Shown: positions 2,060-46,571 of the stretch, in pieces | How the letters are laid out: the number at the start of each line of letters is the position of its first letter | Numbering within the stretch: the stretch's first letter is position 1 | Source of the DNA: Candidatus Woesearchaeota archaeon | Lineage (GTDB): Archaea; Nanobdellota; Nanobdellia; Woesearchaeales; B29-G15 | Assembly (NCBI GenBank): GCA_017610005.1 | Contig: JAFCCU010000002.1 | Location: forward strand, 18,118 to 82,117 | DNA length: 64,000 nucleotides | Direction: 5' to 3' | Translations under genes and position numbers: made by a program | Notes under the pieces: model-generated | Database searches by the model: none | What the model was told of the DNA's origin: nothing | The model's input: only the letters and a program-made list of their open reading frames with translations

Positions 2060-3967
2060 GTGTTTCTATTGCCAGATATAATAAAAGAAATACTCAAGCA
2101 TATACCGGATAAGAAAATCTCTGAAGCCGCATTTGAAGGAGCAAATATTGTGCTCTACACTAAAGATGCAAAGTTCTTTAGAGAGAATAGCAGTTTAATA
2201 AAAGAGATAGTTAATACTATCAAAAAAAGAATTGAATTAAGACCGGATCCTTCCATATCCATGGAGGAAGATGATGCTGAAAAAGAGATTAAAAAATTAA
2301 TCCCTAAAGAAGCAGGGATCACAAATATTATCTTTGATGGCCAACGTTCCAAGGTAATAATAGAGGCTGAAAAACCAGGACTTGCAATTGGAAAAAGAGG
2401 AGATATCTTAGCAACAATTCGAGAAAAATGTTTCTGGATCCCAGTTATTAGAAGAACTCCTCCGATTAAATCTGCATTAATTGAAAATATTAGGGGTGTA
2501 TTGTATGAGCATAGTGATTACAGAAGGAAATTTTTAGACAAAGTAGGCCATAGGATTTATGATGGCTGGATTCGAGAGAAGAAACAAGAATGGATAAGAG
2601 TTTCAGTACTTGGTGCAGGGAGGCAGGTAGGAAGATCATGCTTTTTATTACAAACTCCTGAAAGTAGGGTATTATTGGATTGTGGAATTGATGTTGCTTC
2701 TTCTGAAAAAGATGCTTACCCTTATCTTGATGCACCTGAATTTAATATTAAAGAACTTGATGCAGTAATCCTCTCTCATGCACATTTAGACCACTGTGGT
2801 TTTGTGCCTTATCTTTTTAAATTCGGTTTTAGGGGTCCAGTTTATTGCACTAAACCAACAAGAGATATTGCAGCATTATTGCTTTTAGATTATGTAAAAA
2901 TTATGCGTTCAGAAAATAAAAAACCAATATTTGACCAAGATGACATTAAAGAGATGGTTAAACATACTATAACTTTAGAATTTGAAGAAGTAACTGATAT
3001 CACACCTGATTTGAGAATTACATTATATAATGCTGGGCACACAATTGGTTCAGCAATGATTCACATACATGTGGGCAATGGTCTTCATAATATGATGTAT
3101 ACAGGAGACATGAAGTATGGAAAAACTGAATTATTGAACCCTGCTGCAACCTCTTTTCCAAGACTTGAAACTTGTATACTTGAAAGTACATACGGTGGAA
3201 GAGATGATATTTTACCAAGAAGGGCAGACTGTGAAAATGAATTAAAAGATATTATTGCAAAGACCATTAAAAGAAAAGGAAAGGTTTTAATTCCTGTTTT
3301 AGGTGTTGGACGAGCTCAGGAAGTGATGGTAGTTGTTGAAAAGATGTTAAAAGAGAAGAAGCTCAAAAAAGTTCCAGTTATAGTTGACGGAATGGTTTGG
3401 GATGTTACAGCAATTCATACAACCTATCCTGAATTTTTAAACAGAGAACTTAAAAAAATGATCTTTCATAAAGACACTAATCCTTTCTTATCTGAATGTT
3501 TCAGGAGAATTGGCTCTCAAAAAGAACGTAGTCAAGTTATCGAAGATGAAGGCCCTTGTATAATTATGGCAACCTCCGGAATGCTTGTTGGCGGCCCTTC
3601 TGTTGAATACTTAAAACGCCTTGGAGATAATCCTAAAAACTCCCTAGTCTTTGTATGTTATCAGGGAGCAGGCTCTTTAGGAAGAAGAATTCAGAGAGGA
3701 GAAAAAGAATTAATTATGGCAACAAATGGAACCAAGCAAGAGATATTGCATTTGAAAATGGAGCACCACACTATCTCTGGTTTAACTGGACACTCTGGAA
3801 GAAATGAATTAATGAACTTTATCCAAAACTGTAGTCCTAGACCTAATAAGGTAATTTTTAATCACGGTGAAAATTCAAAAGTTTTAAACTTAACAAGCTC
3901 CATGCATAAACGCTTTAGAATTGAAACAATCGCACCAAGAAATCTTGAATCTGTTAGAGTTAAGTAG
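2060..3967 (+). CDS. fttA: Archaeal CPSF1 homolog (aCPSF1/FttA-type KH + metallo-beta-lactamase + beta-CASP ribonuclease)
   Basis: 635 aa with an MBL motif HAHLDHCG and downstream beta-CASP motifs. N-terminal KH-like region. GTG start 1 nt after the proteasome stop, giving the typical psmB-aCPSF1 neighbourhood. Confidence 0.9.
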   Translation: MFLLPDIIKEILKHIPDKKISEAAFEGANIVLYTKDAKFFRENSSLIKEIVNTIKKRIELRPDPSISMEEDDAEKEIKKLIPKEAGITNIIFDGQRSKVIIEAEKPGLAIGKRGDILATIREKCFWIPVIRRTPPIKSALIENIRGVLYEHSDYRRKFLDKVGHRIYDGWIREKKQEWIRVSVLGAGRQVGRSCFLLQTPESRVLLDCGIDVASSEKDAYPYLDAPEFNIKELDAVILSHAHLDHCGFVPYLFKFGFRGPVYCTKPTRDIAALLLLDYVKIMRSENKKPIFDQDDIKEMVKHTITLEFEEVTDITPDLRITLYNAGHTIGSAMIHIHVGNGLHNMMYTGDMKYGKTELLNPAATSFPRLETCILESTYGGRDDILPRRADCENELKDIIAKTIKRKGKVLIPVLGVGRAQEVMVVVEKMLKEKKLKKVPVIVDGMVWDVTAIHTTYPEFLNRELKKMIFHKDTNPFLSECFRRIGSQKERSQVIEDEGPCIIMATSGMLVGGPSVEYLKRLGDNPKNSLVFVCYQGAGSLGRRIQRGEKELIMATNGTKQEILHLKMEHHTISGLTGHSGRNELMNFIQNCSPRPNKVIFNHGENSKVLNLTSSMHKRFRIETIAPRNLESVRVK

Positions 3968-4000
3968 TCTTCAGACTTCTTACTTCTTACTTCAGACTGC
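3965..4000. repeat. Octamer repeat family element (CTTCAGAC / GTCTGAAG units)
   Basis: agtcttcagacttcttacttcttacttcagactg immediately after the aCPSF1 stop. Part of the dispersed family listed in the findings. Confidence 0.5.
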
Positions 4001-4058
4001 TAACTGTTTGATCGCAAGTTTTATATATTTGTATAGTAAAATAGTGTCTGAGGGAAAA

Positions 4059-5507
4059 ATGTCAAAAAAGGTGTTTTTAGTATTACTAATACTGCTATGT
4101 GCTAGTTTTACATATGCAGAAGAATCATTAGATGTTCAAATTGAATTGATTGCAAATGACTTTTCACTTGTACAAGGCACTAATCAATTTGCAGAGTATG
4201 GGATAAAACTTACTAATCCTTATTCTTATGAAGATACCTTTGAATTTCGTGTAAAAGATTTTTCTTGGAATATTTGGACTAATCCCTTATCTGATTATGT
4301 TGGAGGGGGAGTGGATGTTCAACCAGGCGAAACTTATGAAGTCCAGCTTTTTATCGCCCCCACAGGAACTAAAAATATTGGAAGATATTCTATTCCTTTA
4401 ACAATCACAACAAGGTCTAATGGGGAAAAAATCCAAAAGAATCTTGTTGTAGATATTGTTTCAGGAGTCCCAACAATAAAAGAATATGAATTGGGGATTT
4501 TAGTTAATGTTGATCTACCTTCAGTTATCGATCCCCGTGGTAAAACCACCCTGGTTGTTGATGTAGAAAATGTATTTCCTCGAAATATTACTAACATAAA
4601 GTTAGAATTGATTTCAGAATTAATCAGGGGCAGGTCAAACTTTTCACTTGGAAGACTGGGTGAAGAAACATTAGAGTTTCCAATCGAATTAAATGATTAC
4701 CAAAGCCCTCTTCAAGACAAACTTGAATTAAGATTCTCTAAAGATGATGAAGTCTTTAAATCCGTTAAGGTGAATTATGCTGTTTTAAGTTACTCGATTG
4801 TAAATACTGTTTCTGATGAAACCTATGGCAAATTTTTAAAATCAACAAGAGTAATTGAAGTTCATAATGATGGAAATATCGCAAAAAGTCATCAGATTAG
4901 AATACCTTTAAAATTTGGAAGTGGAATTTTTACCAGGACAGATCCAAAAAACTATCTTGTAAAAGATGAAGAAGGCACATTTATGGTTTGGGATTTAAAT
5001 CTTGATAGTCAAGCCAAGTCAACAGTCACAATTAATCAAAATTATCAAGTATTATTTTGGTTTGGCGTTGTTATTATTTTGATAGGATTATTTTATTGGT
5101 TTATGCGTTCACCTGTGTTAATTGCAAAAGAGGCAAAAGTAGTTGAGATTAGAGATGGTGCAGTATCACAGTTGAAGGTATTGCTTCATTTAAGAAATAG
5201 AACTAACAAACCAATTACGGCAATTAAAATTGCAGATCGTGTCCCAGATATTGCACAAATTCTAGAAGAGTTTGACGTTGGTACAATTAGACCTGAAAAA
5301 ATTGTTAGAGACTCCAAAGGAGGTACTTTAATTAAATGGTCCATTTTGAAGCTTGATCCATATGAAGAACGAATTATCAGCTATAAATTAAGATCCAAAC
5401 TTCAAGTTCTTGGAAGCTTTGTCTTGCCTAGCGCCCTTGTTAAATTCAAGAGCCCCGGCGGTAGCAATCTAAAGTCTAAGAGTAAAATGGGGAAAATTAA
5501 TCAGTAA
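4059..5507 (+). CDS. Membrane protein with N-terminal signal peptide, large extracytoplasmic region, one internal TM helix and a C-terminal cytoplasmic domain
   Basis: The ORF-track ORF starts at 3921 but overlaps the aCPSF1 3' end. The in-frame ATG at 4059 (MSKKVFLVLLILLCASFTYA) gives a signal peptide. TM segment VLFWFGVVIILIGLFYWFM. Confidence 0.6.
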   Translation: MSKKVFLVLLILLCASFTYAEESLDVQIELIANDFSLVQGTNQFAEYGIKLTNPYSYEDTFEFRVKDFSWNIWTNPLSDYVGGGVDVQPGETYEVQLFIAPTGTKNIGRYSIPLTITTRSNGEKIQKNLVVDIVSGVPTIKEYELGILVNVDLPSVIDPRGKTTLVVDVENVFPRNITNIKLELISELIRGRSNFSLGRLGEETLEFPIELNDYQSPLQDKLELRFSKDDEVFKSVKVNYAVLSYSIVNTVSDETYGKFLKSTRVIEVHNDGNIAKSHQIRIPLKFGSGIFTRTDPKNYLVKDEEGTFMVWDLNLDSQAKSTVTINQNYQVLFWFGVVIILIGLFYWFMRSPVLIAKEAKVVEIRDGAVSQLKVLLHLRNRTNKPITAIKIADRVPDIAQILEEFDVGTIRPEKIVRDSKGGTLIKWSILKLDPYEERIISYKLRSKLQVLGSFVLPSALVKFKSPGGSNLKSKSKMGKINQ

Positions 5508-5526
5508 GAAGTCTGGAGTCTAAAGG
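5502..5526. repeat. Octamer repeat family element
   Basis: cagtaagaagtctggagtctaaagg overlapping and following the stop of the 4059..5507 gene. Confidence 0.4.
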
Positions 5527-7733: not shown

Positions 7734-7793
7734 CTCATTTTCTCAGTCTGAAGATAATAGTCTGGAGTACGGAGTCTGCAGTCTGGAGTAAAT
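7704..7793 (+). repeat. Direct repeat copy 1 (tRNA-Tyr 3' third plus ~55 nt downstream)
   Basis: aggttcctggttcaagtccgggggcggggactcattttctcagtctgaagataatagtctggagtacggagtctgcag is repeated almost exactly at 7878..7957. Confidence 0.8.
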
Positions 7794-7877
7794 ATATTTC
7801 CGCCATTCTCTTTAGAGGGTTAATTCGTAGAATTTACCCGAAAGTTTGCTCCTCTGCTTTACAAAGCAGAGACTGTA

Positions 7878-7957
7878 AAGGTTCCTGGTTCAAGTCCGGG
7901 GGCGGGGACTCATTTTCTCAGTCTGAAGATAATAGTCTGGAGTACGGAGTCTGCAGT
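7878..7957 (+). repeat. Direct repeat copy 2 (duplicate of the tRNA-Tyr 3' third plus downstream sequence)
   Basis: Same ~80-nt sequence as 7704..7793. It is preceded by two strong hairpins (gggttaattc-gta-gaatttaccc and ctctgcttt-aca-aagcagag). Confidence 0.8.
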
Positions 7958-16726: not shown

Positions 16727-16785
16727 CAGTCAGAAGTCAGAAGTCTGAAGTCAGAAGTCAGAAGTCTGAAGTCTGAAGTCTTCGG
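16727..16785. repeat. Tandem octamer repeat (GTCAGAAG / GTCTGAAG x ~7) immediately 3' of rps12
   Basis: ggcagtcagaagtcagaagtctgaagtcagaagtcagaagtctgaagtctgaagtcttcgg. A related unit (cttcagac) sits at 16848-16860, directly after the stop of the convergent lipid-kinase gene. Confidence 0.85.
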
Positions 16786-16858
16786 TGTATATATTTATTG
16801 TAGATTTTAAATTGTTATTGGTTTTAATAGAAAATACTTTTTACTGTAAACTTCAGAC

Positions 16859-17830
16859 TCAAAATTGTTTCACAATTTTGTACGCTTTTGGGATAACTCT
16901 TACAGAATATTGAGTTTCTTGAAGTTGCCCAGATATTACATTTCCATCTGATTCAATGAAATGTCCTTCCCTCAGCTTAAACTCGATATGCTCTCCCTTG
17001 TATAATTTTGCATGTCTTGGTTCATGTTGATTAAGGCAGGTTAAGGGTGAATTTAGAATCTGACCTTTGTTCATTGCATCATAAACAACTATTCTTGCGA
17101 GTCCGTCATCAAGGGGCCCAGGAGGCGCTACCCAAATGCCTGCTCCAGGCGTGAAACCTTTTGCAATAATTAAATCAAATGCCGGTTTATTTCTTTCAAC
17201 AATCTTACCATCAACTTTCAACCATTCAATATAAATTGGTTTGTGGGGAATTAAATTCAGCAAGCCTGCTCCTACATGGGCTGGAATTCCCCTAGATTGT
17301 TTCCTTTCTTTTAATTTTTCAACCCTCTTAATATGTTCAGCAGTCCAGCCAAACCCAAGAAAGTTAAGTGAGTAAGCATCAATCCCTCCAGTTATTTCTA
17401 AAATATCTACTTCTTTTGATTTTCCTTCAACTCCTAAAAGAAATAAATCTTCAAGCGCGTTTGGCAAACCGAGAGCGAAAGCATACCCATTTCCTGTTCC
17501 TGCAGGAATCCATACAATTTCAGGCATATTTTCAAGATGATGGTGCCTTAAGTATGTAACAAAATCAAGCACAGTTCCATCCCCTCCAATCCCCCAAAGC
17601 CTTTCATGGATCCCTGGGTCAAAAAAAGGCATTTGAAACACACCATTAAGAAGCACGGTCTGAGAAATATCTGGGGTAAAGTCATGCCCCGCAGCATTGT
17701 AAACTTCAACATATTGTTCTATATCAAAAGAAATGGGTTGCTCCCGACTAAAAAAACTCCTCCTGCGCCTAACTCCTTCAGCTGCAGGATTAGTAAGTAT
17801 TAGGGCACCATTCACAAAAATGAGAAGCAA
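16859..17830 (-). CDS. DAGK-catalytic-domain family lipid kinase (YegS/BmrU-like)
   Basis: GIGGDGTVLDFV (GGDGT) and WIPAGTGNGYAF (P.GTGNDFAR-like) motifs. TTG start 16 nt downstream of the ileS stop. Confidence 0.7.
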   Translation of the reverse strand: MLLIFVNGALILTNPAAEGVRRRRSFFSREQPISFDIEQYVEVYNAAGHDFTPDISQTVLLNGVFQMPFFDPGIHERLWGIGGDGTVLDFVTYLRHHHLENMPEIVWIPAGTGNGYAFALGLPNALEDLFLLGVEGKSKEVDILEITGGIDAYSLNFLGFGWTAEHIKRVEKLKERKQSRGIPAHVGAGLLNLIPHKPIYIEWLKVDGKIVERNKPAFDLIIAKGFTPGAGIWVAPPGPLDDGLARIVVYDAMNKGQILNSPLTCLNQHEPRHAKLYKGEHIEFKLREGHFIESDGNVISGQLQETQYSVRVIPKAYKIVKQF

Positions 17831-21623: not shown

Positions 21624-21768
21624 GTGTAAGGTTTAGGAGATAATATTTTTCACTCCAGACTCCAGACCCCAGACCCCGTACTCCAGATTGTTGTAGGGTA
21701 TAAGGTATAAGGTTTAGGAGATATTATTTTTCACTTCTGACTTTAGACTTCAAACTTCAGACTGATAG
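21624..21768. repeat. Tandem ~70-nt duplication upstream of the first surface-protein gene
   Basis: Two copies of ggtataaggtttaggagataatatttttcact-C/T-c-A/T-gact... Each ends in octamer-family units (ccagactccagacc / cttcagact). Confidence 0.7.
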
Positions 21769-21782: not shown

Positions 21783-21813
21783 AAGTTAACCAGAAATAAC
21801 CCTTGTGATCACC

Positions 21814-23841
21814 ATGATAAAAAAGAGCTGGTTAATTTTCTTAGTAGCACTGCTACTTACATCAACAATAGTTACTGCAGGAGATTATTTATTTCCTGGC
21901 GCTTTTGAAGATAATTCTTTTTGGATCGTTTCAATTGAGAGAGATGATGCAATCCTCCCATGCCTTGGGATGATTGAGATTGGATCTGATGCAATTTTGG
22001 TTTCTCCAGAAGGAGAAGAACATCCTACTGAGATTATTTATGGGCCTCATTTCTTTTCTGAAACCTTTATGAATCGGTGGAGAATTGGTGCTGCAGGATT
22101 AAAATTACCTGAAGAACTATTGGGAGAAGGATGGCAACTTAAGTTAACTTGTGAAACCGAAACAGTAAATTGTGTTGACCAATTGTTTTACAGAGATGAT
22201 GATGGGGTTGAAGAAGAAAAATTACCTGGTTTTGCTTATGGTATTTATGAAGATGAACTACAAAGGGTTGATAATATTTGTGAAGATGATATTGTAACTC
22301 AAGCAGTTTGTAGTGATGACAACATAAGTGTTGAGATAGTAAATCTTGAATGCCCAGCAGGTTGCGCTGGGGCTCACTGTGCTCCTGTATTTGTATGCAT
22401 TGATTCAGATATTGATGAAGAAGATTTTACTGTTATTGCTGGTTTTGTTAATATAACAAGGTATGATGAGGAATATAATGAAACCATTTCTATTGCAGAA
22501 TCTTTAGATGTTTGCGATACTAGGGCATTAACAGAATATTATTGTGAAGATGAAACTGCAACAGAAGCAACTTCTGTTGTAATTTACTGTGATCCTGAAT
22601 GTGCTGACGAAGGATCTTGCATGACCCCAGAAGTTGTTATTGATTGGGATAATATCTCTGGATGTTGTTTAAACAAATTAACAGAGCCTTGCAGATATTA
22701 TGATTCGGCTTTAGAGTGTTGCCCAGTAGAAGGTTATGAAGATGTTGTCGATACCTTTGCGCCTCAAAATCAAGAGGAATGTTTGGCTGACTTCTTTTTC
22801 GAATCAGATAATGCTGAAGCATGTGCAGAGATGGGTCCTGAAGATGCAGAAAATTATAGACTTTGTGAAAAAGGATGCTGTTGTGAATATACGACTGCGG
22901 CTGTTGATTGTGGGCCTGAAGAGGAAACTTGTGAATCAACATTAACGGTTACTGCGGCAAATCAATTATCTAGTGTAGCATGTGCAGTAATTGAAGGCCA
23001 CAGGGCTTACTACACATTTGAAACTATTGAAACTTGTTCAATTGAGTCTTGCTCTGAAAGATTAGGAGGAATAGCTGAAAATCAACCTCCTGTATTTGAG
23101 TTATTAGAAGGTCAAATTGATGTATGCCTTGGAGATGAAGTTAAGTTTGATGTTCAGGCAATTGACGCCGATTCAGACTTTTTAATTTATTCAACTGGAG
23201 TTTTACCTGAAGGTGCAACCTTTCAACAAAAAACAATTCCTCAATATGTTGATGAAGGTTATTCAAGTGAGGGGTATGTCTTTACGTGGACTCCAAGTGA
23301 GGTAGAATCAGTTACTCTTAACTTTTCTGTAACTGATAATCTTTATGAAGTCTCACAAGGAGTTGTAATAAATATTAGTGATTGTAATCCAGTCACAATC
23401 AGCGAATGTAAACCAATGACTCCTCCAAATAATAATACAATTTGTTTGGGAGATAAATTCTCATTTTGTTTAGGGATGGGAGAAATATCAGCAGATTCAT
23501 TGCCTGAGGGAGCAACTTTTAACCAAAATTGCTTTGAATGGGAACCAACTGAAGAAGGCCAATATACTGTAACTTTCGTAAAGGAAGATTGTGAAGAACC
23601 ATTAAATCAAGAGCTGTTTGTACAAGATTGTGATAATGGTTTGGGAGAGTGGATAAAGGGTTTATTTATTGGGGCAGGCATTGCCGCAATAATTGTAGCA
23701 ATCCTTGCTTTTATTGTATGGAAAGGGGTCCTGACGATTGTTTGGTTTGGAATTTCCCTTGCAACAGCTCCTTTGCTATTTATGTCCATATTTGTAGCAA
23801 TCGGAGCAATAGTGGGCGCACTGGTCTGGGGGCTTCTCTAA
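21814..23841 (+). CDS. Cys-rich modular surface protein A: signal peptide, CxDxDGG-type Cys repeats, GCC...GCCC signature module, two He_PIG/cadherin-like domains, C-terminal double TM anchor
   Basis: ATG at 21814 (the ORF-track GTG at 21805). MIKKSWLIFLVALLLTSTIVTA signal. Signature module ~22660-23050 (GCCLNKLTEPCRYYDSALECCPVEGYE...EACAEM...GCCCEY). LPEGATF...W(T/E)P He_PIG-like motifs. C-terminal hydrophobic helices. Confidence 0.8.
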   Translation: MIKKSWLIFLVALLLTSTIVTAGDYLFPGAFEDNSFWIVSIERDDAILPCLGMIEIGSDAILVSPEGEEHPTEIIYGPHFFSETFMNRWRIGAAGLKLPEELLGEGWQLKLTCETETVNCVDQLFYRDDDGVEEEKLPGFAYGIYEDELQRVDNICEDDIVTQAVCSDDNISVEIVNLECPAGCAGAHCAPVFVCIDSDIDEEDFTVIAGFVNITRYDEEYNETISIAESLDVCDTRALTEYYCEDETATEATSVVIYCDPECADEGSCMTPEVVIDWDNISGCCLNKLTEPCRYYDSALECCPVEGYEDVVDTFAPQNQEECLADFFFESDNAEACAEMGPEDAENYRLCEKGCCCEYTTAAVDCGPEEETCESTLTVTAANQLSSVACAVIEGHRAYYTFETIETCSIESCSERLGGIAENQPPVFELLEGQIDVCLGDEVKFDVQAIDADSDFLIYSTGVLPEGATFQQKTIPQYVDEGYSSEGYVFTWTPSEVESVTLNFSVTDNLYEVSQGVVINISDCNPVTISECKPMTPPNNNTICLGDKFSFCLGMGEISADSLPEGATFNQNCFEWEPTEEGQYTVTFVKEDCEEPLNQELFVQDCDNGLGEWIKGLFIGAGIAAIIVAILAFIVWKGVLTIVWFGISLATAPLLFMSIFVAIGAIVGALVWGLL

Positions 23842-24397: not shown

Positions 24398-26581
24398 ATG
24401 ATTAGATATACTGCTTTCTTCATAGCATTTTTATTAGCAGTGTCAATTGCTTCGGCAGCTTGCACTGATACAGATAATGGTAAAACTTACTATGAACTGG
24501 GTAATTGCCAGGCCCCAAATGGATACCCTGGTGATGATGAATGCTGGGACTGGCAAATTGTTAGAGAAAAATTCTGTCAAGATGACGAATCCTGCTGGTT
24601 TTATGATCACCCCTGTAGATATGAATGTGAAGATGGGGCTTGTATTCCTAATCCTAACGAATATTTGATTCCTGTAGGATATGATGGCAAGTGGTACGGC
24701 GCAAGATATCCAAGTAAAAATGACAATATCCCACCTTGCCTTGCATCAGTTAATGAGGGAGATTCAATCAACCTTGTAACAGCAGAATGGCTGGAATTTC
24801 CTGCAAGGGTAGAAGAGGCGCCTCATTCATTTAGGGAGCATATGAATGATTTCCAGATTGTTATTACTGATAATTCAGTTTCAGAGGGACAAAGGCAAGG
24901 GTTAATATTTTCCGCAAGTTTAATTTGTGAAGATGATAGGATGCAATGTATTGATCAGGCAACAAAGGTTAATACTAATAGATACCCAGATGATGGTGAC
25001 TGGATGCCAGGCTTCGCATTTGGAAATTTTTCAGATGAAATTGTGAGAAAAAATAATTATTGTATTGATGATGAGAACTTAACAATATACACATGTGCTG
25101 ATAAATACAATATTCAAAATGTAACAGTTGTATGTGAAAATGGATGCAGTAATGGTCATTGTAAACCTAGATACTTCTGCGAGGATTTTGATGAAGGTCT
25201 TGATCTAAGAACCCCCTCATATGTGGAGATTACAATTGAGCTCGATGGAGAAGAGGATTTTGTTAGAGTATATGAAGATTATTGCAACGGGGATAAAAAA
25301 ATAACAGAGAGAACTTGCAATAGAGATGGAACCTACAAATCAAATATTGAATCATGCTCTTGTGAGGAAGAAGACTGCTGCGATGAAGGAGCATGTGTCA
25401 GTGGGGGGAGCATTAGTGATGTTCCAACAACAATAATCCCTCAAGACCCTGCAGGAACTGAAGATTCTGGATGTTGTTTAAACCCAAATAGGGAAGCATG
25501 CGCCTATTACGACCGGGCGGAAAATTGCTGCTTGGAATGGGAAGATGAATATTTAGTGGAGGGGGGCCCAGTTGATCAGGCAGATTGCCTTGCAAATTAC
25601 TTTTTTGTCTATGAGACAGATGATGCTTGTGCAGTAATGGGAGAAGCATACAATTCATTTGCAAATTATGAGATGTGTTCTTATGGGTGTTGTTGTGTCA
25701 AGGGCCCCATGGGAGATGAAGACTATGTTTATACTGCAACAATTGAAAGAGGGGCTCTTTGTATGGAAACAGATGATAAAATGTGGAGTCCTTTAGCAGA
25801 CATAATTAATTGCGATGAAGCAACTTGTAGGGGGATTATTGCAAATGGTGGGAGCATCAGTGATATTCCCACTATTGCTGACCCTATTATTGATGACCCA
25901 ATTATACCCTCCTCTACTGAACCAATCGAAGATGAAGTTTGCGCTAACGAGGAATTTAAATTATGTTTAGATACTATTGATCCCTTGGGGGGATTTTATC
26001 ACTTCCAAGCAACCTCTGTTCCTTCAGGGGTTGTATTTCATCAAGATCAAGGTTGTATTGTTTGGACTCCAATAATGGAGAATTTGGGTTGGAATATAAT
26101 GAAATTTCAAGACACTGAAAAGGGCAAGGAGGCCCAGATGGGAATAAATGTTTTGTCTTGCTGTCCTGAATTTGTTGAATTACCAAATCAAGAGTCTTGC
26201 ATTAACCAAAATTTAGAATTTTGTTTAGAGGCAGAACCCAATAATGGGAATTTAATCTTTTCAGCAACAACTTACCCTACTGGTGCTACTTTCACTCCCC
26301 TATCGGCTTGCTTTTTATGGAAACCAGAAAAAGAAGGACATTACACAGCTGATTTTTCAGTGTCCAACGGAGAATGTGGAGATCAAATGCAGGTTTCAAT
26401 TTATGCTGGCTCTTGTGGGGCAGAAATCAGCAGCGAGGATGGAGGAATTGATTGGGGACAAATGTGGGTGGGGATAGGTTTAGCGGTGTTGGGTATACTT
26501 GCAATAGCTTTAAGCTGGATTGCTTTCCCAGTATTTTTCGTTATAGAAGCAATTGCAATTGCAATTATGGTATTTTCATAA
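24398..26581 (+). CDS. Cys-rich modular surface protein B (closest paralog of A)
   Basis: Signal MIRYTAFFIAFLLAVSIASA. Signature module ~25469-25840 (GCCLNPNREACAYYDRAENCCLEWEDEY...DACAVM...GCCCVKG). Two He_PIG-like motifs (VPSGVVFHQDQGCIVWTP; YPTGATFTPLSACFLWKP). C-terminal TM. Confidence 0.8.
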   Translation: MIRYTAFFIAFLLAVSIASAACTDTDNGKTYYELGNCQAPNGYPGDDECWDWQIVREKFCQDDESCWFYDHPCRYECEDGACIPNPNEYLIPVGYDGKWYGARYPSKNDNIPPCLASVNEGDSINLVTAEWLEFPARVEEAPHSFREHMNDFQIVITDNSVSEGQRQGLIFSASLICEDDRMQCIDQATKVNTNRYPDDGDWMPGFAFGNFSDEIVRKNNYCIDDENLTIYTCADKYNIQNVTVVCENGCSNGHCKPRYFCEDFDEGLDLRTPSYVEITIELDGEEDFVRVYEDYCNGDKKITERTCNRDGTYKSNIESCSCEEEDCCDEGACVSGGSISDVPTTIIPQDPAGTEDSGCCLNPNREACAYYDRAENCCLEWEDEYLVEGGPVDQADCLANYFFVYETDDACAVMGEAYNSFANYEMCSYGCCCVKGPMGDEDYVYTATIERGALCMETDDKMWSPLADIINCDEATCRGIIANGGSISDIPTIADPIIDDPIIPSSTEPIEDEVCANEEFKLCLDTIDPLGGFYHFQATSVPSGVVFHQDQGCIVWTPIMENLGWNIMKFQDTEKGKEAQMGINVLSCCPEFVELPNQESCINQNLEFCLEAEPNNGNLIFSATTYPTGATFTPLSACFLWKPEKEGHYTADFSVSNGECGDQMQVSIYAGSCGAEISSEDGGIDWGQMWVGIGLAVLGILAIALSWIAFPVFFVIEAIAIAIMVFS

Positions 26582-26606: not shown

Positions 26607-27684
26607 ATGAAAAAAGTAATTCTCTTGCTAATTTTTCTTTTAAACATTTACACAGTCTCAGCAGGATGCTGCATCAATCCAAATAGCTACGCTTGTTAGA
26701 TAGTTGATACTCAATGTTGCCCAACAGATGGAGAATACTCTTCTCCTTTTGGCCCCTCTGGACCAAATGACTATAAGACTTATTGGTTTTATGATTCAAC
26801 ACATCCAGAAGCATGCGCAATAATGGGGCTTGAGTCAAGCCCAAATTACCAATTATGTGAATTTGGATGTTGCTGTGAGCTAATGCCAGAGGGGATAACG
26901 AATGGAAAGCCTATGGCCCAGGCAGCTTGCATGGATAATCATCAACGTTGGCACACTTTTGATCAAATACCAGATTGTTCACCAACAAATTGCGCAGCAA
27001 AATTTAACACAAAAGCTGTTGGAGCAACAACTACTACAATAAATTTAGAAACAGCAAGAAGGAGAACTGAGGAATCAGGAGTTGAAGCAGAAGACTTCTT
27101 TGAAAGAGTGCAAGCATGTATTGGAGAACAGTTAGTGTGGTGTCACGATTGGTATATAATTGAGGAAGGTAAAATCCTCCCAGTGGGCGCAATAAGGGTG
27201 AATGATTGCTTTCATTGGACTCCTGACCAGGAAGGAGAATATCAAATAAGTTTAGGATATACGTTTGATGTGCCAAGTTATATAGAAAGAATGTTGCCAG
27301 AACCCACTTTGAATATTTCAGTGGATTACTGTGGTGATTGCTTTCTTATTGCAGAGATTGCTGATGAAAATACTGCAGAAGGGATATGATCCCTTTTATG
27401 GTTGAAGCTGCAGATGAAGAAGGGGATTTACTCACTTACTCAGCATTAAATTTACCAGAGGGCGCAATTTTCAAAACTGATATTGGATTATTTTTTTGGC
27501 AGAGCAAGGATGCAACACCCGGCATATATGAATTAGAATTTGTTGTAACAGATGGAAAATGCACTGTTTTGAGAAAGTAACTCTTGAGATTGAAGAGTGC
27601 GGCGACACATCAATAGTATCACAGATTCTTGCTATGCTTGCTATAATTTTTGGTGGGGCAACTGTTTATACAATTGCTGCATGA
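26607..27684 (+). pseudogene. Decayed paralog C of the Cys-rich surface-protein family (in-frame TAG plus at least 2 frameshifts)
   Basis: Signal peptide and GCCINPNSYAC then TAG at 26697-26699, exactly where paralogs have the conserved Tyr (C-x-Y-x-D). The frame then continues through CCPTDGEY...EACAIM...GCCCE. Frameshifts near 27386 and ~27575. The He_PIG-like and C-terminal TM remnant (ILAMLAIIFGGATVYTIAA) are in other frames. Confidence 0.75.
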
Positions 27685-27985: not shown

Positions 27986-29587
27986 ATGAAGAAATTTGTA
28001 TTTGTAGTCATTCTTTTTTTACTCTTTTTAACAGCGTGTGACAAAGATACAGATGGTGATGGAATTTCTGATACTGAAGATAATTGTATTGGTATTAGAA
28101 ACTCGGATCAAATAGATTCAGATAAAGATGGCTGGGGGGATCCATGCGATTTTAATGAAGATCTAAGTGAAACACTTTTATATTTTTCCGCAACCTGGTG
28201 TACTTATTGCCATGAACAGTTACCAATTATTCGAGAACTTGATCAAGACTTTCCAGATTTAGAAATTCAATATCTTGATTTTGATGCAAGGCAAGATTTA
28301 GTTAGGGAATATGGTATTGTGGGTGTGCCTCATTATGTATTTATAAAAGGAGATTGTTGGAAAAAAACAAGAGGTACAACAAGTTATTCAGAATTAGTTA
28401 ATTGGATGGGAAAGGGTGCTTGCGCAAGATCAGCAGCAGTCCGTAGCCAAGGAGTCAATTTGCAGTCTGAAGTCATAAGTCAGAAGTCACTCAAACCCCA
28501 AACCCCAAACCCCAAACCCCAAACCTTACCAACTGGTTGTTGTATAAATCCTAATGAAAATGCGTGTGTTTATTCTGATGATATTGATAAATGTTGCCCA
28601 GTAGATGGTTATGAAGAATCAATAGGACCGCAATCACAAGCTGAATGTAAAGAACATTGGTTCTTTCCCCACGCAACAGAAGAAGCATGCAGCGTAATGG
28701 ATCCATTAACTTATGAAAATGCACAATATTGTGAATTTGGGTGCTGTTGCGAGGCTACCCCCATAGGTATAGCTGCATTTGCCTCAGAAAAAATCAAGTG
28801 TAATGATTATTGGGGAAGTTATGAAGAATTAAATTGCACGGTAAATGATTGTTCTAAATTTATTGAAGGGGGGGCAACATTAAAGACTGCTTCTCGTGTT
28901 TCTCCAATGGCAACAATCTCAGTTACTCAAACAGAAGATGAAACTTGCGTTGATGAATTGTATATTTTTTGTACAGTAAATCCTTTAGCTACTGAGATAT
29001 CAAATTTACCTGCTGGCGCAATAATTACTAACAACTGCATTGAATTCACCCCCACTGAAGCCCGTAGTTATTCAATTACGTTTAGAGAGGGAGATTATTA
29101 TTCAGAGGTACTAAACTTAGAGGTAATAGACTGCTCTGATCCGCCAGTTTTAGGATTCTTGCGAAATCGGAATGTATACAAAAATCAGATATTTAGTATT
29201 AGGGTACGTGCTACTGGGACAGGAGATTTGACATATGTAGTAGAGGATATGCCTGATGATGCCAAATTCAATCCAAAAAAATTAAAATTTTCTTGGATTC
29301 CAAGAGAGGAGAACGTTGGCAAACAATATAATGTTAAATTTATTGTGATAGATTCAAATGGGAGAACTGATGAAAAAACAGTTGAACTTAATGTTAGAAA
29401 TTATTCTTTCATGTGGATAGCTGGTTTGTCATTGGCCCTTGCAGGTTTACTTTACTTAGGTGCATTATTTTCCGGATTGCTTGAATCTCTAACATGGTTT
29501 TCCTCTTCTGCATGGATATATGTTGCAGGGGCTTGTATTGCGATATCCTTTATTCTGGTCGCGCTTTATTTTCTTTCGGGATTATGA
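27986..29587 (+). CDS. Cys-rich modular surface protein D with thrombospondin type-3 repeats and a thioredoxin-like CxxC domain
   Basis: Lipobox-like signal (FLLFLTAC). TSP3 repeats DKDTDGDGISDTEDNC / DSDKDGWGDPCD. Trx-fold motif LLYFSATWCTYCHEQ...GVPHYVFI. Pro/Thr linker encoded by repeats. Signature module ~28535-28860 (GCCINPNENACVYSDDIDKCCPVDGYE...EACSVM...GCCCEA). He_PIG-like LPAGAIITNNCIEFTPT. C-terminal TMs. Confidence 0.8.
   Translation: MKKFVFVVILFLLFLTACDKDTDGDGISDTEDNCIGIRNSDQIDSDKDGWGDPCDFNEDLSETLLYFSATWCTYCHEQLPIIRELDQDFPDLEIQYLDFDARQDLVREYGIVGVPHYVFIKGDCWKKTRGTTSYSELVNWMGKGACARSAAVRSQGVNLQSEVISQKSLKPQTPNPKPQTLPTGCCINPNENACVYSDDIDKCCPVDGYEESIGPQSQAECKEHWFFPHATEEACSVMDPLTYENAQYCEFGCCCEATPIGIAAFASEKIKCNDYWGSYEELNCTVNDCSKFIEGGATLKTASRVSPMATISVTQTEDETCVDELYIFCTVNPLATEISNLPAGAIITNNCIEFTPTEARSYSITFREGDYYSEVLNLEVIDCSDPPVLGFLRNRNVYKNQIFSIRVRATGTGDLTYVVEDMPDDAKFNPKKLKFSWIPREENVGKQYNVKFIVIDSNGRTDEKTVELNVRNYSFMWIAGLSLALAGLLYLGALFSGLLESLTWFSSSAWIYVAGACIAISFILVALYFLSGL
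28461..28527. repeat. In-frame simple-sequence tract inside gene D: octamer-family units followed by (AAACCCC) x 4.7
   Basis: cagtctgaagtcataagtcagaagtcac then aaacccc x4 plus aaacc (28493-28525). It encodes QSEVISQKSLKPQTPNPKPQT. Confidence 0.85.
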
Positions 29588-29648: not shown

Positions 29649-31037
29649 ATGCTAAGAGTATTTAACACATTAACAAGGAAGAAAGAAGAGTTTATCCCAA
29701 TAAAACAAGGAGAGGTAAGAATGTATTCTTGCGGACTTACTGTTTATGGATTTGGGCATATTGGAAATTTTCGCGCGTTTATTGCATCTGATTTAATTTC
29801 TAGGTATTTAAAATATAAGGGATATAAGGTTACAAAGGTAATTAACATAACAGATGTTGATGATAAAACAATCAGGGGAGCAATTAAAGAAGGAGTCTCT
29901 TTAAACAAATACACTGAAAAATATATTAAGGGTTTTTTTGATGATATTAATACATTAAATGTTGATCCTGCTAATTATTATCCTAAGGCAACTGATTATA
30001 TTAAAGAGATAGTTGAACTTATTGAAAAATTAAAGGCTAAAGGCCATACTTATGAACAAGATGGCTCAATTTATTTTAAGATTTCAAGCGATAAAAATTA
30101 TGGGAAATTAGCGCATTTAGATTTTTCTAAATTAGTTGATAACGCGCAAGGACGGTTAGATTCTGATGAATATGATAAAGATAATGCAAGAGACTTTGTA
30201 TTATGGAAGGGTTACAAAGAAACAGATGGCGAAATATTTTGGAATACAAAGCTTGGCAAGGGAAGACCTGGATGGCACATTGAATGTTCTGCAATGTCAA
30301 CCAAATTATTGGGTGACTCTTTTGATATTCATACGGGTGGAGTTGATTTAATATTCCCTCACCACACAAACGAAATAGCTCAAAGTGAAAATGCAACTTG
30401 CAAACATTATGTGAAGTATTGGCTTCATAATGAATACTTAAAAGTTGAAGGCGAAAAAATGTCAAAGTCTTTGGGGAACTTTTTCACATTAAAAGATTTA
30501 TTAGAAAAAGGACTTGATCCAATAGCAATTCGTTATGAACTTTTAGCAACAAATTATAGAATGCCATTAAATTTTACAATAGATGGCGTAGGGGCATCAA
30601 AGGTTGCAATTGAAAAATTAAATAATTTTGTGTGGGAATTGACTGTTGCAAAAGAAGGAAAGTTATCAGAAAATATTGAAGAATTAATCAAATCAGCAAA
30701 AGATAACTTTGAATCTGCAATGGATGATGATTTTAATATATCTAGGGCACTTGCAAGTATATTTGACTTTATGAAATCAATCTTTAAAGAAGGATTTACA
30801 TCTGCTGATTCAAAACTAATTCTAAGTTTCTTAAAAAGTATCGATTCTGTGCTAGGAGTTATCTCTTTTGAAAGAGATACTGAGATTGATAAGAATATTG
30901 AGCAACTAATTGAACAAAGAAATATTGCAAGAAAAAATAAAGACTTTACAACAAGTGACAGAATTAGAGATGATCTGCTCAAGAAGGGAATTGAACTTTT
31001 AGACGGGCCAGAAGGCACTAAATGGCGCAAAAAATAA
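29649..31037 (+). CDS. cysS: Cysteinyl-tRNA synthetase
   Basis: 462 aa class I aaRS with MYSCGLTVYGFGHIGNFR (HIGH), KMSKSLGN, and the CysRS length and anticodon-binding tail. Confidence 0.9.
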   Translation: MLRVFNTLTRKKEEFIPIKQGEVRMYSCGLTVYGFGHIGNFRAFIASDLISRYLKYKGYKVTKVINITDVDDKTIRGAIKEGVSLNKYTEKYIKGFFDDINTLNVDPANYYPKATDYIKEIVELIEKLKAKGHTYEQDGSIYFKISSDKNYGKLAHLDFSKLVDNAQGRLDSDEYDKDNARDFVLWKGYKETDGEIFWNTKLGKGRPGWHIECSAMSTKLLGDSFDIHTGGVDLIFPHHTNEIAQSENATCKHYVKYWLHNEYLKVEGEKMSKSLGNFFTLKDLLEKGLDPIAIRYELLATNYRMPLNFTIDGVGASKVAIEKLNNFVWELTVAKEGKLSENIEELIKSAKDNFESAMDDDFNISRALASIFDFMKSIFKEGFTSADSKLILSFLKSIDSVLGVISFERDTEIDKNIEQLIEQRNIARKNKDFTTSDRIRDDLLKKGIELLDGPEGTKWRKK

Positions 31038-35131: not shown

Positions 35132-37624
35132 ATGAAGTATTCACTTTCTTTACTCCTTTTCTTACTAATCCCCCTAACCTTCGCCGCAACACTTGAGACT
35201 TATGAGGGCGGAGCTGTTGACCCAGCAGGATTTTCTATGAGTGCTAGTGGCGCGCAAACACTTAGCATTAGTAAAACTGTTTATACTGACAGCACAATTC
35301 CCTTACAAATCTCCAATTCAATATATGGTTTTTCAATTTCAGGCAACTTCAATTTACAAACAGACTCAGCAACATTAAGAGTGATTTTAATAGATAGTAA
35401 TGACCAAGAATACTTGGTTTTTGAAGCATATAACTTGCTTTATGGCCAAGGTTATGGCTCATTTAATTACATCTGCGAAGAAACCTGCTTACTTCATGGA
35501 GTTAACCCAAGTAATCTAAAAGTTGAAATTGATGGTGCAACAATGGATATAGCTAATGCCCATTATATAACCCAAAGGCCTCTTTCTCCGCAGGCCATTA
35601 GTACACAGAAAAGTGATAATCAACAATCTCAAACAAATTTTAAAATCCAAAAGTTAAATGAAAAAGCAGAAGGCTGGATTGCTGGAGAAACTGAGGTGGG
35701 GAATTTATTATATTCAGAAAAAAAAAATCTTTTTGGAGGAGAAAAACTTCCTAACTTGCAAGGATTTGAATATTATAAAGGAGGAGTATTCTCTTTTGGC
35801 AAAAGCACAACAGTTAATCAAAAAAATTTAAACTTCCAGTTTCCAATTAAATTTGATTGGCGTGACCGCCATGGCAAGTCTTGGATTCCCAATATTGAAT
35901 CTCAAGGTCATTGTGGCGCTTGCTGGGCGTTTGGAGTATCATCAACAGTTGATGCAGTAATTAATTTGTATTATAATCGAAGGTTAAACATTGACATGTC
36001 TGAACAACACATTATTTGTGATAAAAAGGGTTCGTGTGTGGGTGGAGCTTGGCCACAAAGAGCTTTAAACCTTTTTAAAAATGAGGGAATTGTTGAAGAG
36101 AATTGTATGTATTATTCTGCAAGGGATGATGATTGTGATAGGTTATGTAATGAATGGCAAAAATCTCTTTGGAAGATTGAGGATTACCATCTTGTATTGG
36201 GATCAGATGATTCAATAAAAAAAGCATTAATTGAGCATGGGCCTTTAACTTTTGCGACTGCATTTTGGGATGGGAGATCAATGGAAGGTTCAAATTACGG
36301 AAATTTCCCGGATGGTCCAAGGCCTTGGGCAAATCATGCGATGAGTCTTATTGGATATGAGACTGGTTCATTAGAGACTATTTGGATTGTTAAGAATTCC
36401 TGGGGCCGTACCTGGGGCCAAAATGGTTATGGCTATATTCAACTGCCTTTTATTCAAAGATGGTCTATATACTGGATTGAACATCCTTATTTGGAATATG
36501 ATCCTGATAGATTTGAAGTGAGATGTGAGGATAAGGATGGAGATAATTATTGTAATTGGGGAATAATTGGGGATAAACCTGTTACTTGCCCAGAGAATTG
36601 CCTTCAATTAAAAGATTGCGATGATTCAAATCCTCACTTTGGCCCATACTCAGATACATTTGAATGTATTGAAATAACCTCCAGCAGGGCAGGAATTTCA
36701 GTAAAGAATGATTCAAAAGGGTGTTGTGTAAATCCCTATAGCGAGGCATGTGTGATATCCACAAAAAATCAGTGTTGCCCAGATGAAGGATATGGGGTTA
36801 CAAAAGATTTGGGACCAATTTCAAGAGAAGAATGTGAATCTCATTTTTTTTACCCTTCTGAATCAGCTGAAGCATGCGTGCTTATGGATTTATCAAGTTT
36901 TCCAAATGCTAATTTTTGTAATGCTGGTTGCTGCTGCACTAGATTTGAAGATTCTAAATTTTCTTTCCCTCTGCTGGAGGGTGAAGAAAAAATAAAGGCT
37001 CAATGTTTAAATGATTATCAAAGATGGTATACTTATCAGGAAGTAGGAGGATATTGTTCTAATTGGGAATGTGGGAATATTGCTTCAGGCATAGCCAGTA
37101 CATCAGGAACTCTTTATGGATCGCATCCGATAGATGAGTTTAATAGGCCACTTATTTCTTCTGCTATAGAATACAAGGGAACTGTGGGTGAAGAGTTAAT
37201 GTTTAGAATTGAGGCCACTGGGGCAAAACCAATTACTTTTTTAATGTTAGAATTTGAAAAGCCAATCCCTAACGGTGTTGAATTTAATCCAATCACTGGG
37301 GTTTTTAAGTGGACTCCAAAAAAAGCAGATGTTTTTACATTCAAGGTTGTAGCTCAAAATAAGAATGGTTATGATTCTGAATTGATTCAAATAGATATTT
37401 TTGATAATTCTCCTGCAGGGAATAACCTTATGTGGGGGTTAATCTTAGCAGGATTAGCTCTTTTTGTGGCAATTATAGGGATTGCTTTTTATGGGCTTAT
37501 TGGTTTTGTTGCAGGGTTTTTGGGGCTTGCAGGGCTCTGGGGAATGATAATTTCTGGAGTAGCAATAATATTGGCTGCACCTTCAGCTGGTTTTATTTTA
37601 GGATGGATATTGGGTTTTTGTTAG
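35132..37624 (+). CDS. Cys-rich modular surface protein H carrying a papain-like (C1A) cysteine peptidase domain
   Basis: Signal MKYSLSLLLFLLIPLTFAA. C1 motifs ~35850-36450: FDWRDRHG, QGHCGACWAFG (catalytic Cys), ANHAMSLIGYE (His), VKNSWGRTWGQNGYGYI (Asn). Signature module ~36719-37080 (GCCVNPYSEACVISTKNQCCPDEGYG...EACVLM...GCCCTR). He_PIG-like IPNGVEFNPITGVFKWTP. C-terminal Gly-rich TMs. Confidence 0.85.
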   Translation: MKYSLSLLLFLLIPLTFAATLETYEGGAVDPAGFSMSASGAQTLSISKTVYTDSTIPLQISNSIYGFSISGNFNLQTDSATLRVILIDSNDQEYLVFEAYNLLYGQGYGSFNYICEETCLLHGVNPSNLKVEIDGATMDIANAHYITQRPLSPQAISTQKSDNQQSQTNFKIQKLNEKAEGWIAGETEVGNLLYSEKKNLFGGEKLPNLQGFEYYKGGVFSFGKSTTVNQKNLNFQFPIKFDWRDRHGKSWIPNIESQGHCGACWAFGVSSTVDAVINLYYNRRLNIDMSEQHIICDKKGSCVGGAWPQRALNLFKNEGIVEENCMYYSARDDDCDRLCNEWQKSLWKIEDYHLVLGSDDSIKKALIEHGPLTFATAFWDGRSMEGSNYGNFPDGPRPWANHAMSLIGYETGSLETIWIVKNSWGRTWGQNGYGYIQLPFIQRWSIYWIEHPYLEYDPDRFEVRCEDKDGDNYCNWGIIGDKPVTCPENCLQLKDCDDSNPHFGPYSDTFECIEITSSRAGISVKNDSKGCCVNPYSEACVISTKNQCCPDEGYGVTKDLGPISREECESHFFYPSESAEACVLMDLSSFPNANFCNAGCCCTRFEDSKFSFPLLEGEEKIKAQCLNDYQRWYTYQEVGGYCSNWECGNIASGIASTSGTLYGSHPIDEFNRPLISSAIEYKGTVGEELMFRIEATGAKPITFLMLEFEKPIPNGVEFNPITGVFKWTPKKADVFTFKVVAQNKNGYDSELIQIDIFDNSPAGNNLMWGLILAGLALFVAIIGIAFYGLIGFVAGFLGLAGLWGMIISGVAIILAAPSAGFILGWILGFC

Positions 37625-40297: not shown

Positions 40298-40415
40298 ATC
40301 AGTCTGGAGTTAGAAGATTGAAGTTTGAAGTTTGAAGTTTGAAGTTTGAAGTGAAAAAAGAAGTTCAAACCACAAAACTCACACCTCAAATCTCATATCA
40401 GTCTGAAGACTGAAC
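40298..40415. repeat. Octamer/heptamer repeat element in the divergent valS / ABCE1 intergenic region
   Basis: atcagtctggagttagaagattgaag then (gaagttt) x4 then ...atcagtctgaagactgaac, which ends in the hairpin cagtc-tgaa-gactg. Confidence 0.8.
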
Positions 40416-46097: not shown

Positions 46098-46262
46098 TAT
46101 CCTCCTATAAAAATAATAATTACCCCACAGAATCGCAAGGTCTTCACCTCTTAAAAATTAGAATGAAGCTTGATTAATAAACCTTTGTGTAAAGAAGTAA
46201 ATAAGGAGGCCAAAACTTACAATTATCACAACAATCAAACCTCCAATAAAAACAGAACTCTC
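46098..46262. repeat. Conserved upstream block, copy 2 (overlaps the 3' coding end of the 46158..46571 gene)
   Basis: See 43981..44160. Here the block also encodes the C-terminal TM anchor ...GLLIYFFTQRFINQASF of the neighbouring small secreted protein. In copy 1 this coding frame is broken by a 2-nt deletion. Confidence 0.8.
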
Positions 46263-46571
46263 CTTACCACTAACCTTCACTGGCACAATAATCTCACTAT
46301 TATTCTCCTTGATAATAACCTCATGCTCACCAGGTGGCAACTCAAAGGTTACCTTCGTCCAATCGTTAACAGTCTGAAGTTGAAAGTCTGAAGTTGAAAG
46401 TAACTTTAGACTTCGGACTTCGGACTTCTGACTTATTTGGGCTGTCCACACCTCAAACCCCTCTCCCCTAACCCGCAAAACAACTTCTCCATCAGTCTCA
46501 ATACTAGCTGGTGACACTGCAATTCCCTGGGCCAATGGAATTAATAATAAAAAAAGAATTAGATATTTCAT
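46158..46571 (-). CDS. Small secreted protein with a C-terminal TM anchor (137 aa)
   Basis: Signal MKYLILFLLLIPLAQG and a C-terminal hydrophobic helix. Translationally coupled to the upstream LTD protein (4-nt overlap). It contains an in-frame octamer-repeat palindrome at 46369-46435. Confidence 0.6.
   Translation of the reverse strand: MKYLILFLLLIPLAQGIAVSPASIETDGEVVLRVRGEGFEVWTAQISQKSEVRSLKLLSTSDFQLQTVNDWTKVTFELPPGEHEVIIKENNSEIIVPVKVSGKESSVFIGGLIVVIIVSFGLLIYFFTQRFINQASF
46369..46435. repeat. Octamer repeat family element, imperfect palindrome, in-frame inside a CDS
   Basis: cagtctgaagttgaaagtctgaagttgaaagtaactttagacttcggacttcggacttctgac. It encodes ...ISQKSEVRSLKLLSTSDFQLQTV... on the minus strand. 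Confidence 0.8.

Follow-up and report, generated by a model that had tools for sequence, protein, structure and literature searches.

The predicted surface-protein gene D of a Woesearchaeota contig (JAFCCU010000002.1), analysed here within a window of 64 kb (the whole stretch of DNA under study, 64,000 nt), contains a tract of tandem seven-nucleotide repeats that is read in frame and translated. An earlier annotation of the same DNA, hereafter the first-pass annotation, had pointed to this tract as a possible site of slipped-strand variation. Our analysis suggests that the tract is probably an in-frame member of a class of heptamer arrays dispersed through the window, which slippage would have expanded or homogenised and which would be tolerated in a disordered linker, rather than a switch kept by selection.

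The letters of positions 28461-28527 are cagtctgaagtcataagtcagaagtcac tcaaaccccaaaccccaaaccccaaaccccaaacc. Tandem Repeats Finder (TRF) resolved them into two adjoining arrays of period 7, an upstream one at 28464-28489 (3.7 copies, 84% matches, consensus AGTCAGA) and a perfect (CAAACCC)x4.9 at 28492-28525 (100% matches, score 68). The latter agrees with the (AAACCCC) x 4.7 that the first-pass annotation had called at 28493-28525, whereas the preceding units, taken there for an octamer family, are heptamers of the form (GAAGTCN)x4. The heptamer-phased segment spans 28463-28525, i.e., 63 nt, 9 units or 21 codons (residues 160-180), and its units in phase are cagtctg aagtcat aagtcag aagtcac tcaaacc followed by ccaaacc four times, giving the peptide Q160-T180, QSEVISQKSLKPQTPNPKPQT. 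Its first part, array A, opens with the boundary motif of the heptamer family, CAGTCTGAAGT, and codes for Q160-S168 (QSEVISQKS) plus the first base of L169; its second part, array B, codes for (L)KPQTPNPKPQT, residues 169-180, and the product of the CAAACCC tract as such is LKPQTPNPKPQT. A codon starts at 28493, so that K170-T180 reads KPQTPNPKPQT, and the translation of the open reading frame (ORF) 27986-29587(+) confirms the in-frame reading given before. The peptide repeats with a period of seven residues, KPQTPNP, because all three phases of one heptamer are read. Of the three frames, array A is free of stops only in the one that gene D uses, and the tract lies at codons 169-180 of 533, 32% into the ORF and 3′ of a complete thioredoxin domain.

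The protein begins with a lipobox-type signal peptide (LFLTAC) and continues with TSP3, thioredoxin, the linker, a Cys-rich module, He_PIG and C-terminal hydrophobic helices. Pfam placed a TSP_3 calcium-binding repeat at residues 17-41 (3e-06), a thioredoxin fold with the motif WCTYC at residues 56-141 (E = 1.5e-11) and a He_PIG immunoglobulin (Ig)-like domain at residues 396-470 (2e-04), and the two hydrophobic helices at the C-terminus could be read as a transmembrane (TM) anchor. The designation as a surface protein, also used in the first-pass annotation, derives here from the signal peptide, the TSP3, thioredoxin and He_PIG matches and the C-terminal helices, and is kept here as a prediction from sequence: gene D probably encodes an anchored, multidomain surface protein. 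In an AlphaFold2 (AF2) model, residues 143-183 form the coil of lowest confidence, with a predicted local distance difference test (pLDDT) score below 50, between the two modules; the model was built on a 3-sequence alignment, has a mean pLDDT of 54 and supports a disordered linker weakly. The tract lies between Pfam domains, in a region whose length is not conserved among homologs and which is coil in this weak model, as would be expected of a linker. It resembles the Pro/Thr-rich interdomain linkers of secreted proteins in lying between modules, in being rich in P, T, K, Q and N, in being predicted to be unstructured and in differing in length among homologs, but, unlike ordinary linkers of this kind, the DNA that codes for it is a perfect microsatellite with a unit that does not keep phase with the codons.

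A comparison was possible with the sole ortholog of gene D retrieved by an exhaustive HMMER search of about 5.8 billion protein clusters with the C-terminal half as query. This protein, P0074 (497 aa), aligns with gene D end to end (BLASTP 6e-93, 32% identity) and has the same parts, i.e., a lipobox, thioredoxin (WCRYC), a linker, a GCCLNPN module, an Ig domain and an anchor. On its contig, L345, the order is P0074, cysteinyl-tRNA synthetase (CysRS; 69% identical to that of the window) and a TSP3 protein, which matches the window, and P0074 is the positional ortholog of gene D because of this shared synteny with the CysRS and TSP3 genes. No period-7 repeat was found on L345. The linker of P0074 reads ...GACSQDGIQAKGAIENSEPSNAKS directly before GCC, and that of gene D reads ...GACARSAAVRSQGVNLQSEVISQKS and then LKPQTPNPKPQTLPT before GCC, so that it is 15-16 residues (45-48 nt) longer, nearly all of this being the CAAACCC tract; the placement of the gap within the linker is ambiguous, with the extra residues flanked by a common AAGTCA (KS) on one side and, on the other, by the GCC with which the Cys-rich module opens. 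The paralog 24398-26581 likewise has a short linker directly before GCC (BLASTP, MAFFT). Judged by these alignments, the interdomain linker is older than the tract, which is an addition specific to this lineage. The TSP3 repeats of the gene D N-terminus (residues about 17-55; 28034-28150) are also absent from P0074 (L345 1830-1900), and gene D therefore appears to have gained two lineage-specific insertions.

The comparison of orthologous loci that the first-pass annotation had proposed could thus be carried out with this one ortholog at 32% identity, in which the linker is shorter and non-repetitive, and no related strain was found. Exact look-up retrieved no identical proteins for gene D, CysRS, the ribosomal protein S12 or a proteasome subunit. 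Word-indexed homology searches gave TSP3 and Ig-domain matches only for full-length gene D and no match for its thioredoxin and linker part; there was no match to gene D in JGI metagenomes, and profile searches added no ortholog beyond P0074. The GTDB loci of the CysRS matches (best 57% identity) contained no heptamer motifs.

Two further observations concern the relatives of gene D. The Cys-rich module between its linker and its Ig part (GCCINPN...EFGCCCE) has no Pfam match and follows the pattern 'GCC[IL]NPN..AC...CCP...GP..Q..C...FF....ACA.M.....N...C..GCCCE', with copies at 28535-28900 (gene D), 25480-25800 (gene 24398-26581), 26664-26900 (a pseudogene) and L345 2226-2560; its place beside an extracellular thioredoxin suggests that these archaea have a family of surface domains rich in disulfides. 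The pseudogene, at 26607-27684 (+), is a decayed paralog of the C-terminal half of gene D in which a separate signal peptide immediately precedes GCCINPN. It is interrupted by an in-frame TAG (26697-26699) and by two frameshifts, one near 27386 and the other near 27559, and since no lesion falls at a repeat, simple sequence repeats (SSRs) are not the route by which surface genes decay here. The signal peptide of this paralog had raised the idea that the repeat in gene D marks a gene-fusion seam, which was rejected, P0074 being already fused without the repeat.

Gene D shares its repeat type with other loci of the window. A scan for tandem periodicity found nine arrays at lag 7 and none at lags 4, 5, 6, 8, 9, 10 and 11, far beyond chance, and the motif AGTCWGAAGTC had 27 matches with at most one mismatch (1.45 expected). 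The start motif CAGTCTGAAGT was exact at four loci including gene D, with 16 matches at up to one mismatch against 0.89 expected. Eleven arrays were counted (3964-4006, 5503-5520, 7744-7790, 7919-7955, 16727-16782, 16849-16860, 21647-21690, 21731-21764, 28463-28525, 40300-40412 and 46370-46434), nine of which lie between genes in a window that is 88% coding (binomial P = 2e-7). Their neighbours include genes for FttA, a tRNA, S12, a class-I aminoacyl-tRNA synthetase (aaRS) and ABCE1, and the class is therefore not tied to surface genes. The usual layout is the CAGTCTGAAGT start followed by a GAAGTCN-family array and, often, by a C/A-rich part of the type '..CTCAAACC..'. The array between the class-I aaRS and ABCE1 genes has the same two-part build as gene D, with (GAAGTTT)n followed by degenerate TCAAACC ACAAAAC TCACACC TCAAATC, and its two arms fold back on each other to give a hairpin (RNA fold -33 kcal/mol, z = -3.3). 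The array in the small ORF 46158-46571 is in frame and, like that of gene D, exactly 63 nt long (9 units, 21 codons), with ISQKSEVRSLKLLSTSDFQLQT as its product; it consists of an array and an inverted array, which together fold strongly into a hairpin (-22.7 kcal/mol, z = -6.15). The segment may have been inserted in frame into this ORF, for which no homolog was retrieved. Rfam gave no match at the gene D tract or at any array, its sole report in the window being a tRNA at 7610-7733.

Unit slippage in this genome is suggested by a duplicated tRNA flank, in which two copies are identical over 81 nt (7702-7782 and 7877-7957), then differ, as aligned by eye, by one 7-nt unit TCTGGAG, and both resume with TAAATAT past the indel; it is a single case, and MAFFT drew a 5-nt gap there. 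The intron-containing tRNA itself (7610-7733, by Rfam, with a long intron) is followed by a partial duplicate at about 7800-7912, with flanks to 7955. This duplicate shares the 3′ half and the array, and its 5′ part differs yet could pair with the acceptor 3′ strand, so that Rfam and ARAGORN may have missed a second tRNA here, either intron-containing or unusual.

Taken together with the sequence comparisons above, a plausible history would be that a heptamer segment of 63 nt came to lie in the gene D linker between the extracellular thioredoxin and the Cys-rich/Ig-like/TM part, and that replication slippage homogenised its second half into a perfect (CAAACCC)5. The product, QSEVISQKS-LKPQTPNPKPQT, would serve as an extra flexible Pro/Thr/Lys linker, and the segment could have been retained because its length is a multiple of 21 nt, because its frame is the sole one open across array A and because its product is acceptable as a spacer. 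The tract would then be an indel hotspot like any perfect SSR, in which gains or losses of three units would merely tune linker length and variants of one or two units, encoding thioredoxin-only proteins, would be mutational by-products.

The consequences of such changes could be followed in silico. Gain or loss of one or two units brings a stop 6-9 codons past the tract, yielding products of 184-191 aa that comprise the signal peptide, TSP3 and thioredoxin only, the signal peptide and the thioredoxin domain being intact in both out-of-frame products, and a change of three units keeps the frame with 526 or 540 aa. The simulation bears out the statement of the first-pass annotation that a one-unit change frameshifts the gene, the unit not being a multiple of three and the tract being perfect. 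It is on this ground that gene D could be taken for a contingency locus, in which slipped-strand mispairing at (CAAACCC)n would toggle between the anchored full-length protein and a thioredoxin-only lipoprotein and thereby create reversible, heritable surface variation in an archaeon that depends on a host. The single-unit changes suggested by the tRNA-flank arrays would fit this explanation, as would the intragenic heptanucleotide SSRs accepted as phase-variation candidates in Haemophilus influenzae, such as AACAACC, which has 1-13 units within the gene of a TonB-dependent receptor, and AATTTTGx14 in the middle of the hmw1a ORF (both Power et al. 2009, PMC2651432). Gene D is like these loci in having a non-triplet 7-nt tract within a predicted surface-protein coding region, where a unit change frameshifts and truncates. 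However, differences in copy number between strains (1-13 or 14 units) and alleles of both the ON and the OFF state are documented in H. influenzae, whereas gene D has 4.9 units in one genome, compared with 6-38 units in the H. influenzae heptanucleotide loci discussed, and, unlike them, has an ortholog without the tract and belongs to a repeat class found mostly beside housekeeping genes.

What the first-pass annotation called a classic contingency-locus arrangement therefore stands as far as the mechanics of truncation go, and the genomic context argues against it. No SSR was found in six other genes with TSP3/He_PIG matches or a predicted signal peptide plus anchor (5740, 21805, 24398, 31066, 33660 and 35132) or in three weaker secreted/anchored candidates (4053, 46568 and 58468) of the window, leaving the small ORF 46158-46571 as the only other predicted secreted/anchored gene with a heptamer array. 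Given this, the few units (about five), the site in the middle of the gene and away from its start, the mainly intergenic occurrence of the class with its housekeeping neighbours, and the repeat-free ortholog, a selected switch is less likely, and we consider the contingency locus an unlikely explanation of gene D. The alternative that the first-pass annotation had itself allowed, i.e., a tract that tunes linker length in steps of three units, fits the evidence better than on/off switching.

A further question is how the segment came into gene D. It could have arrived as a small mobile or copied element of 63 nt, which would be compatible with a linker, switch or G-quadruplex (G4) function alike. 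The copies share a defined 5′ boundary, CAGTCTGAAGT, the two-part layout recurs, exactly 63 nt lie in frame in two ORFs, and P0074 has no such segment. In addition, an exact 11-mer, CACACCTCAAA, occurs at 40380-40390 and 46447-46457, shortly 3′ of arrays and on the same strand as the CAGTCTGAAGT start, which hints that, at the level of sequence, the arrays may be part of a longer conserved element. Set against this are the lack of terminal inverted repeats, target-site duplications or a transposase, the great variation of the copies in length and unit sequence, a net difference from the ortholog of 45-48 nt and not 63, and the similar frequency in public contigs of arrays built from arbitrary heptamers (see below). 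Since the ortholog junction already has AAGTCA, seeding by slippage in place is equally possible, and arrival as an element is rather doubtful. The arrays recall Rickettsia palindromic elements, which are small repeats inserted in frame into ORFs with a conserved element of about 100-150 nt: both are dispersed short repeats found between genes and in frame in ORFs, and the array at 46370-46434 is a palindromic hairpin. They differ in that no sign of mobility was found here and in that the copies in the window are heterogeneous tandem arrays.

A bolder combination of these ideas would have two-part heptamer elements mark gene boundaries and enter two surface genes as 63-nt modules, with (CAAACCC)5 of gene D being a working slipped-strand switch. 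The elements would consist of CAGTCTGAAGT, a GAAGTCN array and a C/A-rich '..CCTCAAACC..' part, often foldable as array/inverted-array hairpins, and through the switch the cell-surface thioredoxin would alternate between a short form and an anchored one with several domains, which would make gene D an SSR contingency locus in a host-dependent DPANN archaeon. To our knowledge, such a two-part heptamer-array element family has not been described in a DPANN archaeon. We hold this combination to be somewhat less likely again than either the contingency locus or the arrival of an element taken singly.

The tract also has potential for DNA structure. With four G-tracts and short loops, GGGGTTTGGGGTTTGGGGTTTGGGG on the template strand is a predicted G4, one of only two G3+x4 motifs on both strands of the 64 kb (mononucleotide shuffles average 0.025), while the gene D mRNA bears the C-rich strand. 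Folding found no RNA or DNA hairpin at the gene D tract on either strand. The template-strand (GGGGTTT)4 G4, together with a possible i-motif on the sense strand, might stall RNA polymerase or the replisome, or might favour recombination, with the result that expression of the distal gene part is modulated. The rarity of such motifs in DNA of 35% GC and the presence of exactly four complete GGGG runs would agree with this idea, the latter matching the G-rich heptamer repeats of Xanthomonas and Nostoc, which favour four units and form G4s in vitro (PMC4692102). Nevertheless, G4 potential is automatic once the unit is repeated at least four times, the other members of the heptamer family are not G-rich, and that study could not demonstrate a regulatory role even in bacteria (PMC4692102), which makes a structural role of the DNA improbable. 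The other canonical G4 motif of the window (GGGTTTTTGGGGCTTGCAGGGCTCTGGGG) is at 37514-37542 (+), within the Gly-rich membrane-anchor coding part of the papain-like protease gene 35132-37624.

Least probable of all would be a programmed -1 ribosomal frameshift site (C_CCA_AAC) at the tract or an assembly artefact joining two unrelated genes. The slippery heptamer is indeed in frame, ACC CCA AAC being read in the zero frame at T173-P174-N175, once per 21 nt, and repeats commonly cause misassembly. However, the RNA folds of 28512-28620 and 28440-28580 were not more stable than those of shuffled sequences (z = +1.0 and +1.3), and a frameshift site was largely rejected, the slippery heptamer lacking a downstream stimulatory structure. 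An assembly chimera at the repeat was likewise rejected because the ortholog P0074 shares the fused architecture and the same downstream genes.

Beyond the window, heptamer arrays are widespread. GAAGTCN arrays were found in more than 120 metagenome contigs/loci and in 57 viral (IMG/VR) contigs/loci, with GC from 33% to 69%, and (CAAACCC)x3.5 was found in 4 viral loci. Two permuted control heptamers were nearly as frequent, with 48 and 35 viral loci compared with 57 for GAAGTCN, and it is therefore the heptamer period that is general, the GAAGTCN unit not being special. In 15 pairs of near-identical public contigs the arrays were alike, but the flanks were themselves 98-100% identical, so these pairs are uninformative on the stability of copy number. 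Heptamer arrays in unrelated public contigs very often consist of an array and an inverted array (hairpin) or of two different arrays back to back, which looks like a general and little-studied repeat architecture.

A literature search on heptanucleotide repeats in archaea found no directly relevant paper. Heptameric SSRs in general are over-represented in prokaryotic genomes, mostly non-coding near gene ends and associated with all functional classes (PMC4692102), vary in unit number between relatives (PMC4692102), and in Xanthomonas and Nostoc were judged by the authors of that work to be improbable vehicles of phase variation (Rehm et al. 2015, PMC4692102); Beggiatoaceae carry TAACTGA heptamer arrays (MacGregor 2015, PMC4679880). 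The arrays of the window resemble these dispersed repeats (cyanobacterial STRR, Xanthomonas/Nostoc GGGNATC / GGGGA(C/T)T and Beggiatoaceae TAACTGA) in their 7-nt unit and many scattered arrays, in their non-coding bias near the ends of genes of all functional classes with rare copies in ORFs, and in some inverted pairs able to form hairpins, the gene D tract adding four G-runs on one strand. They are unlike them in their DPANN host and in their units, GAAGTCN and CAAACCC, and also in that the arrays of the window share the start motif CAGTCTGAAGT and are often two-part, and that the gene D copy is translated as a linker.

Several points weigh against reading the tract as a passively tolerated linker repeat. 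An SSR that is perfect, non-triplet and located in a surface-protein gene has the look of a contingency locus, and the perfection of the 4.9 units implies recent or ongoing slippage, so that the tract may well be polymorphic in the population. DPANN archaea need cell-surface contact with their hosts, for which variable surface proteins would be useful. The comparison with relatives rests on one distant ortholog (32% protein identity) and not on close strains, the disordered linker is weakly supported by an AF2 model of 3 sequences, and the "passive" role given to the intergenic heptamer family is a default. Even so, a slippage-derived and tolerated linker repeat appears to be the most probable reading of the tract.

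The archaeal host was identified from the window itself. Its gene content is archaeal, with split rpoB and rpoA genes, NusA, S12, FttA/aCPSF1, ABCE1 and a long-intron tRNA, at a GC content of about 35%. The CysRS is at most 57% identical to those of GTDB species representatives, the best match being a Woesearchaeota metagenome-assembled genome, and the host is an uncultivated, Woesearchaeota-like (DPANN) archaeon. The coordinates of gene D, its repeat and the other features are given in Table 1.

Table 1. Gene D, its heptamer tract and related features of the 64-kb window.
Feature	Position	Strand	Basis
Gene D, 533 aa	27986..29587	+	ORF list, translation, Pfam, full-length ortholog P0074
Array A, four GAAGTCN-type heptamers (cagtctg aagtcat aagtcag aagtcac)	28463..28490	+	TRF
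Array B, tcaaacc + (ccaaacc)x4	28491..28525	+	TRF, sequence, translation
Net insertion of about 45 nt / 15 aa (LKPQTPNPKPQTLPT) relative to ortholog and paralog	28490..28534	+	BLASTP, MAFFT, ortholog DNA
Canonical G4 motif GGGGTTTGGGGTTTGGGGTTTGGGG (predicted), antisense (template) strand	28496..28520	-	Regex scan
CysRS, synteny anchor	29649..31037	+	Pfam tRNA-synt_1e 2.9e-108
Array between FttA/aCPSF1 gene and next gene	3964..4006	-	Motif and lag scans, Pfam for FttA
Short array overlapping stop codon of gene after FttA/aCPSF1	5503..5520	+	Motif and lag scans
Two copies of tRNA 3′ half + heptamer array	7744..7790 and 7919..7955	+	Sequence, alignment
Array (AGTCWGA)x~8 directly after ribosomal protein S12 stop, convergent spacer	16727..16782	+	TRF 7.6 copies, 93%
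Two tandem arrays (heptamer array + GTGAAAAAT...CTCCTAAACCTTAYACC) 5′ of TATA-like box of surface-protein gene 21805-23841	21647..21764	-	Sequence, TRF
Array between divergent class-I aaRS gene and ABCE1 gene	40300..40412	+	Sequence, TRF, RNA fold, Pfam of flanks
Array in predicted secreted/anchored small ORF 46158-46571 (-)	46370..46434	.	Sequence, translation, fold

If the tract is merely a tolerated linker repeat, the case is an ordinary one, which adds a DPANN example to the long-noted and unexplained excess of 7-nt repeats in prokaryotes and indicates that heptamer arrays can be absorbed into proteins as linkers when their length is a multiple of 21 nt. The heptamer family, with its start motif, its sites at gene ends and its hairpin pairs, could also provide a handle on the purpose of heptameric SSRs. 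Surface proteins of ultra-small, host-attached archaea are thought to mediate contact with the host. If unit number does vary in populations, the tract would represent SSR-based surface variation in such archaea, and it would offer a simple sequence signature for searching other DPANN genomes.

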